From: Escherichia coli
GTDB taxonomy: Bacteria > Pseudomonadota > Gammaproteobacteria > Enterobacterales > Enterobacteriaceae
DNA: 64,000 bases
Assembly: GCF_050920415.1 (NCBI RefSeq)
Contig: NZ_CP169309.1
Direction: 5' to 3' (one strand)
The notes below the pieces were generated by a model, which worked only from the letters and a program-made list of their open reading frames with translations, was not told the DNA's origin and did no database searches. A program made the translations under genes and the position numbers. This document shows, one piece after another, positions 52,756-52,902 of the stretch (positions are counted from its first letter, which is position 1; each line of letters starts with the position of its first letter).

Positions 52756-52902
52756 TTTTGTCTTCCGGGACCAGTGGTAAATACCCATCAGAATAGAGGA
52801 TGGCTGGTCGAAATTGAAGCGGGAAGGGGGAAGAATGCGGCAGATAACCCGTATCTTTACGTTGCCTTACGTTCAGACGGGGCCGAAGCCCCGTCGTCAG
52901 CA

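Follow-up and report, generated by a model that had tools for sequence, protein, structure and literature searches.

A U-less stem-loop directly after tolC as a probable 3'-end-defining element of the tolC mRNA in Escherichia coli

The genes tolC, ygiB and ygiC are called an operon, and the question raised by this locus is where the tolC transcript ends within it and what the stem-loop found at that point does. The main multidrug efflux pumps of E. coli use TolC as their outer-membrane exit duct, and the level and lifetime of the tolC mRNA therefore have some bearing on drug tolerance. In a review (PMC11762307, after Dhamdhere & Zgurskaya 2010), tolC and ygiBC are described as co-transcribed, yet their reported responses differ. 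Overexpression of BaeR in E. coli raised tolC 1.9-fold and did not induce ygiA, ygiB or ygiC, while in C. rodentium the Cpx response induced ygiB and not tolC (Gilliland et al., bioRxiv). We examined the tolC-ygiB intergenic region in a stretch of 64,000 nucleotides from an E. coli genome (the window). The features that bear on the question are collected in Table 1, and all coordinates refer to the window unless K-12 is named.

Table 1. Features of the tolC-ygiB-ygiC locus, in the order in which the tolC transcript reads them, with the superseded ygiA frame last
Feature	Position	Strand	Basis or remark
tolC coding sequence, 493 aa, TGA at 52905-52903	52903..54384	minus	ORF list and RefSeq annotation of identical or near-identical loci
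7-nt linker UGCUGAC from the tolC stop codon to the stem	52896..52902	minus	varies within E. coli
Stem-loop GACGGGGC-UUCG-GCCCCGUC	52876..52895	minus	sequence, folding, E. coli invariance
Parts of the stem-loop	5' arm 52895-52888, loop 52887-52884, 3' arm 52883-52876	minus	
5-nt tail UGAAC after the stem	52871..52875	minus	last base corresponds to K-12 3' end 3179628
Putative CpxR-type tandem box GTAAG-GCAAC-GTAAA, beginning 6 nt past the stem	52856..52870	minus	81/81 loci
C-rich, G-poor tract, candidate rut (Rho-loading) region, 30 C and 11 G in 78 nt	52767..52844	minus	composition
Second conserved block CGCTTCAATTTCGACCAGCCATCCTCTATTCTGA, promoter-like (possible -35 TTCAAT, 17-nt spacing, -10 TATTCT)	52788..52821	minus	conservation
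ygiB (DUF1190 lipoprotein), begins MKRTK	52084..52755	minus	ORF list, RefSeq; tblastn from residue 1 in 83/83 loci
ygiC (peptide-spermidine ligase), last gene of the operon	50918..52078	minus	ORF list, RefSeq annotation
Palindrome TACCGGATGGCGAGTGCCATCCGGTA, perfect 11 bp, between convergent ygiC and ygiD, marks the operon end	50885..50910	not assigned	
Old ygiA ORF, 86 aa	52643..52903	minus	ATG shares bases with the tolC stop (TGATG); the frame crosses the hairpin and enters ygiB in another reading frame

On the plus strand the element reads GACGGGGC (52876-52883), cgaa (52884-52887) and GCCCCGTC (52888-52895). The preliminary description of this DNA had quoted cgaa as the loop, which is the plus-strand reading only; tolC lies on the minus strand, and the order in its transcript is UGA (stop)-UGCUGAC-GACGGGGC-UUCG-GCCCCGUC-UGAACGUAAGG, with UUCG as the RNA loop. 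The other structural statements of that description were borne out. The perfect 8-bp stem with its tetraloop falls within the stretch 52870-52902 that it had named, the stem begins 7 nt past the TGA and in that sense stands directly behind the stop codon of tolC, and there is no U-run beyond it. Seven of the eight pairs are G-C, the loop has 4 nt and the whole element takes up 20 nt. The pair that closes the loop is C-G, giving the extra-stable tetraloop C(UUCG)G, which is confined to the tolC sense strand. The 33-nt stretch folds at -18.0 kcal/mol (z = -4.34 against 200 dinucleotide shuffles, none of which was equally stable), and the hairpin was kept in both the minimum free energy and the centroid folds of its 171-nt context.

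The geometry is that of an intrinsic terminator, a G-C-rich stem in the range of approximately 5 to 14 bp with a short loop, and the flanks are not. The 9 nt after the stem, UGAACGUAA, hold two U, both counted within the first 8 nt, where a U-tract would have, for example, at least five; the sequence ahead of the stem, UGCUGAC, holds no A-tract. A simple terminator scan did not call the tolC hairpin. Searches of positions 50000-56000 with the Rfam covariance models, at E values up to 10, returned nothing relevant, the matches there being two spurious snoRNA hits elsewhere in the interval.

In first-order Markov simulations, chance alone yielded approximately 0.74 hairpins per 64-kb window whose stems are perfect, 8 bp or longer, and include seven or more G-C pairs, and one such hairpin somewhere in 64 kb is unremarkable. 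By our own arithmetic, the probability that one lies no more than about 10 nt from a particular stop codon is roughly 3e-4. The case against chance thus rests on position and on conservation of a hairpin across genera, not on the quality of the hairpin alone, and of the two the cross-genus conservation is the stronger argument.

The element is constant in the E. coli genomes sampled. The region is 100% identical to that of strain Z0117EC0005 and differs from K-12 MG1655 at three of the 191 bases around the hairpin and at none within it. An identical 30-mer centered on the hairpin was found in about 5280 E. coli records, once per genome, and in the E. coli variants that were inspected the changes lay only in the linker (UGCUGAC, UGACGAC, UGACUAC or CGACGAC) or in the tail. 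Queries of 40 nt and 30 nt both matched E. coli genomes at a median of one place, which in every case was at tolC, and this single-copy occurrence rules out in E. coli the reading of the hairpin as a dispersed repeat of the REP/BIME kind.

Published K-12 data place an RNA end at the hairpin. In the Term-seq study of Adams et al. (2021 eLife, PMC7815308, Supplementary file 1), a 3' end of the primary tolC class was mapped to NC_000913.3 3179628 (+), with 4220 reads in LB at OD 0.4 and 1585 in LB at OD 2.0; the M63 minimal-medium data of the same study do not include it. On the K-12 sequence this position is the C of UGAAC, 5 nt past the last stem base, and alignment of the two sequences transfers it to 52871. 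DirectRNA-seq counts over 800 nt upstream and downstream were 197 and 110 without bicyclomycin (BCM) and 161 and 194 with it (PMC7815308), so that inhibition of Rho took the downstream/upstream ratio from 0.56 to 1.20 and abolished the drop in coverage; these 800-nt windows include the ygiB promoter region, and effects of BCM on this promoter or on antisense transcription could therefore contribute. The end lies within a Rho termination region whose score is 2.16 at 3179628 and peaks at 2.30 at 3179617 (p = 1.6e-7; PMC7815308), a modest value of about 2.2 that comes from a single BCM experiment. The intrinsic-terminator score of the same position is 1.32, with a cutoff of 3.0 (PMC7815308). Because BCM abolishes the drop and the intrinsic score is below the cutoff, the attenuation is Rho-dependent and not intrinsic to the hairpin. 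The supplements of TERMITe make no mention of tolC.

The preliminary description had taken the hairpin for an RNA stabiliser or partial attenuator that modulates read-through from tolC into ygiBC, and had proposed RNA-seq coverage and Term-seq as checks, with uniform read-through as the result that would speak against it. In K-12, which carries the identical hairpin sequence, coverage drops approximately two-fold across the hairpin, a primary tolC 3' end lies 5 nt past the stem, and uniform read-through is not seen; the end at +5 and the halved downstream coverage support a stabiliser or partial attenuator. The part concerning ygiBC holds only with a qualification. Downstream coverage is indeed about half, and roughly half of the tolC transcripts run on past the hairpin, but in C. 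rodentium ygiB has a Cpx-dependent promoter of its own. In view of that promoter, the hairpin closes the tolC unit just ahead of an independent ygiB promoter and is not the sole control of ygiBC.

The far end of the operon was also represented in the Term-seq data, with a primary 3' end for ygiC at 3181617 and 1332 reads in LB at OD 0.4 (PMC7815308), about one third of the 4220 reads at the tolC hairpin under the same condition. This K-12 position maps just past the palindrome TACCGGATGGCGAGTGCCATCCGGTA, which has no clear U-tract on its ygiC side and may be another U-poor 3'-end hairpin.

The spacer beyond the hairpin contains candidate elements of a promoter and of a Rho-loading region. Directly 3' of the hairpin is an invariant block, ACGTAAGGCAACGTAAAGAT, which includes the tandem box. 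The CpxR consensus has been given as GTAAA(N)4-8GTAAA (Gilliland et al., bioRxiv), and the box, with one mismatch to GTAAA-N5-GTAAA, matches this consensus and is a putative CpxR site. GTAAG-N5-GTAAA was present in each of the 81 loci compared, 84 to 110 nt before the ygiB ATG, with the pentamers fixed and the spacer between them variable. In C. rodentium the tolC-ygiB interval was described as holding a putative CpxR site, and a fragment of approximately 300 bp from upstream of ygiB drives CpxRA-dependent lux expression (Gilliland et al., bioRxiv 2021, 2022). The second conserved block, CGCTTCAATTTCGACCAGCCATCCTCTATTCTGA, was nearly invariant over 30 representative Enterobacteriaceae loci (16 named genera and unclassified isolates) and is likely the core of the ygiB promoter, with TTCAAT and TATTCT as its presumed hexamers; a simple sigma-70 promoter scan did not call this block.

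The best 78-nt C-rich tract starts about 30 nt past the stem. Its C/G ratio of 2.73 places it in the top 0.34% of all 78-nt windows on both strands of the 64-kb stretch, and across the 81 loci the median C/G past the box was 2.29, compared with 1.16 in the tolC coding sequence. Rho loading here is plausible because the spacer is untranslated: the tolC stop codon lies 7 nt before the stem and the ygiB start 120 nt after it, leaving an untranslated stretch of approximately 150 nt. We regard the tract as a candidate rut site. The probable ygiB promoter occupies part of the same sequence, so the tract may instead owe its conservation to the promoter.

These properties assign the tolC hairpin to a class that was described by Dar & Sorek (2018), in which Rho-dependent transcripts end directly past stable stem-loops that have neither U-rich tails nor upstream A-tracts, the diffuse tails left by Rho are cut back by PNPase and RNase II, and C is enriched over G just downstream. 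The tolC hairpin shares with this class the stable stem-loop free of a U-rich tail and an A-tract, the precise steady-state 3' end a few nucleotides past the stem, the downstream coverage that is sensitive to Rho in the published BCM data, and the downstream enrichment of C over G. It differs in its placement, which is internal to an operon, with tolC before it and ygiB after it, and not at a transcription unit's end, and termination is accordingly no more than partial; in addition, a downstream promoter begins a few nucleotides past it. Its membership of the class is ordinary, and published tables already give the position of the 3' end together with the Rho and terminator scores. With the REP/BIME stabilisers, such as that of malE-malF, it has in common an intercistronic palindrome able to block 3'-5' decay and the possibility of higher expression upstream than downstream within an operon; unlike them, it is a single-copy element of 20 nt that is not dispersed and does not resemble the REP consensus.

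We consider it probable that the hairpin is the exonuclease-blocking, 3'-end-defining stem-loop of a monocistronic tolC mRNA, and that the ends it receives come from partial termination by Rho within the C-rich spacer. Polymerases coming from the tolC promoters would pass through the hairpin, which lacks a U-tract and would not release them efficiently. The ribosome would leave at the stop codon 7 nt upstream, so that the next 150 nt or so, including the C-rich, G-poor tract, would remain untranslated. Rho could then load on the C-rich tract and end about half of the transcripts somewhere downstream. The heterogeneous tails would be trimmed by the 3'-5' exonucleases PNPase and RNase II back to the stem capped by C(UUCG)G, a step proposed for the tolC locus by analogy with the Dar & Sorek class, and trimming would leave a precise and stable end 5 nt past the stem. 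The hairpin would be the cause of this end, as its position suggests, and would most likely protect the tolC message from degradation, presumably lengthening its half-life. As an outcome, the tolC message would be more abundant and longer-lived than the ygiBC read-through message, and ygiBC could be driven independently from the Cpx-dependent promoter that starts right past the hairpin.

The comparison across Enterobacteriaceae shows that the position is kept while the sequence is not. A TolC-based search with one genome per species gave 80 loci, or 81 with the window itself. The next gene after tolC was ygiB in 80/80, and a compact hairpin was present in 81/81, at 0 to 44 nt (median 12) past the tolC stop. 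The hairpin sequences are lineage-specific and could not be aligned between genera. Escherichia and most Citrobacter have exactly the same UUCG hairpin, Buttiauxella and Dryocola have GGGGGCAUG-ACAA-CAUGCCCCC, and GCGCUUCGCUUA…UAAGCGAAGCGC is the form in Klebsiella and Raoultella. In Kluyvera, Cedecea, Kosakonia, Phytobacter and Pseudocitrobacter the hairpin is followed by 5 to 8 U and forms a canonical terminator.

In other lineages the position after tolC is occupied by long REP-like palindromes, namely in Enterobacter, Lelliottia, Salmonella enterica subsp. arizonae and two Citrobacter; REP-like palindromes of the form GCGCUUCGCUUAUCGGGCCUAC…GUAGGCCGGGUAAGCGCAGCGC were also seen in Huaxiibacter, Intestinirhabdus and Pseudenterobacter, and several Enterobacter have a CCCUCUCCC…GGGAGAGGG hairpin in place of the REP-like palindrome. 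The loci concerned are L012, L013, L017, L018, L024, L029, L031, L037, L042 and L045, for which the first 80 nt or so past the tolC stop were considered. The pattern of sequences suggests that the hairpin has been repeatedly replaced by mobile palindromes.

The strength of the hairpins separates the position from coding sequence. The energy of the best perfect stem had a median of -17.4 kcal/mol after tolC and -5.8 kcal/mol in 567 control segments from the tolC and ygiB coding sequences, of which none reached -14; the control segments are mutually homologous, so the Mann-Whitney p-value overstates their independence. A looser measure, the best hairpin no longer than 63 nt when internal loops were permitted, gave no separation (control median -19.6 kcal/mol) and was dropped. 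Counting of base pairs was restricted to the Buttiauxella set, where the hairpins are of equal length; 3 of the 10 pairs carried compensatory changes, and the G-U pairs of this set are mismatches on the opposite strand. In a MAFFT alignment of the ACGGGG-type hairpins, the 3' arms came into register and the 5' arms did not, as the loop lengths differ. Taken from these comparisons, selection at the position after tolC appears to act on structure.

One rival to the Rho-fed barrier concerns the mode of release. The hairpin could be a weak, degenerate intrinsic terminator with a poor U-tract, UCUGAACGU, that releases some polymerases directly, the end at +5 being a slightly trimmed termination point. 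Like intrinsic terminators, the element has a G-C-rich 8-bp stem and a 4-nt loop just past a stop codon. UUCG loops are reportedly common in terminator hairpins, an observation attributed to d'Aubenton Carafa and colleagues in 1990. The element may also be homologous to a true terminator: the 3' arm and tail of the E. coli element align with the Kosakonia/Phytobacter version, which has U5 at the same position (CCCCGUCUGAACGUAAGG vs CCCCCGUUUUUACGUAAGG), and the E. coli element looks like that hairpin minus its U-tract, with the change having possibly run in either direction. With U counted after the G-C core, 24 of the 81 loci were tallied as having a U-tract, 4 as having a weak one and 53 as having none; one Kluyvera locus (L036) had been wrongly scored as U-less, and the corrected count of loci with a U-tract is 25. 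The core was used as the reference because the terminator scan misses the Kosakonia and Kluyvera versions, in which the maximal stem absorbs the U's as A-U pairs, although the hairpin of one relative with a U-tract was called by the scan. With approximately 25 of 81 related species carrying a U-tract, the ancestral role may have been plain intrinsic termination. Stem, loop and energy also do little to tell the two kinds of hairpin apart, their distributions being nearly identical between U-less and intrinsic hairpins (Dar & Sorek 2018).

The evidence from E. coli itself weighs against direct release. Efficient hairpin-driven release requires a U-tract, and here two of the first eight tail bases are U and the terminator scan was silent. 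The published score of 1.32 is below 3.0, and the drop in coverage is removed by BCM. We therefore regard an intrinsic terminator at this place in E. coli as unlikely.

A second rival keeps the barrier and changes the origin of the tails. The full tolC-ygiBC transcript could be cleaved by an endonuclease (e.g. RNase E) in the A/U-containing spacer, and the hairpin would then stop exonucleases that enter at the cut, which amounts to segmental mRNA stabilisation as in the REP element of malE-malF. According to Adams et al. (PMC7815308), most 3' ends outside the intrinsic and Rho-associated groups are likely processing products, and some ends combine mechanisms. [quoted passage not shown] Against cleavage, Rho is indicated by the BCM-dependent rise of the ratio from 0.56 to 1.20. 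We hold cleavage to be an improbable source of the tails, and it differs from the Rho-fed barrier only in where the tails come from and not in what the hairpin does.

A palindrome acting at the DNA level, as a protein site or as the upstream part of the ygiB promoter, or a chance or selfish repeat with no role in RNA, would suit its place, with the conserved CpxR-type box 5 nt away and a Cpx-dependent promoter downstream, the mobile REP-like repeats that fill the position in some genera and the 0.74 hairpins expected per 64 kb, but is very improbable, since between genera the sequence is replaced and the pairing kept, the opposite of a sequence-specific DNA site, the G-U pairs and the UUCG loop make sense solely on the sense RNA, the element is single-copy in E. 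coli (median one place per genome), and an RNA 3' end maps to it.

The hairpin helps to explain two features of the locus, namely that tolC and ygiBC are called an operon and yet respond differently to BaeR and to Cpx, and that Term-seq finds a tolC end inside that operon. The additions made here are small: the cross-genus pattern, in which the position is always filled by a hairpin and sometimes by one with a U-tract, and the invariant CpxR-type box adjoining it. This comparative pattern could guide the annotation of the tolC and ygiBC transcription units.

A wider reading, which we put forward as a speculation of low probability, would make the hairpin, the CpxR box and the C-rich leader a single conserved module in which the hairpin is tuned between two states. 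In the first, represented by Kluyvera, Cedecea, Kosakonia and Phytobacter, the U-tract may fully insulate ygiBC from the tolC promoters. In the second, represented by Escherichia, Citrobacter and Buttiauxella, which have no U-tract, termination may be conditional on Rho and so on translation and the stress state. If this were true, the coupling of tolC to ygiBC could be switched on under conditions that compromise Rho, and the Cpx promoter would otherwise be shielded from transcriptional interference. The reading draws on the comparative pattern and one BCM data set.

Several further observations were made at the locus. The old ygiA ORF, which is still a label in the tables of Adams et al., was rejected as a real gene. 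It is not in the current RefSeq annotation, E. coli GN04979 and Escherichia sp. MOD1 have ACG where its ATG would be, and the freedom of the region to change in length and sequence between genera speaks against a coding role; ygiA is probably not a gene.

The 301-nt stretch 52700-53000 had a match of at least 99% in only 18 of 5425 E. coli genomes, most of the others being at approximately 96 to 97%. Since the intergenic portion hardly varies, the differences must sit in the 3' end of tolC or the 5' end of ygiB, which suggests that this strain carries an uncommon allele at one of these ends.

Approximately 50 E. coli plasmid records contain a 20- to 21-nt match to the hairpin (H32, H62), with E values of 2 to 6, in or beside a gene for a phospholipase D family nuclease. 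These are probably one chance match repeated over related plasmids.

Finally, the tables of Adams et al. list an orphan 3' end at K-12 3177983 (+), corresponding to approximately 54516 in the window. It lies in the nudF-tolC intergenic region, 132 nt before the tolC start codon, and a prematurely ended tolC leader or a small RNA could account for it.
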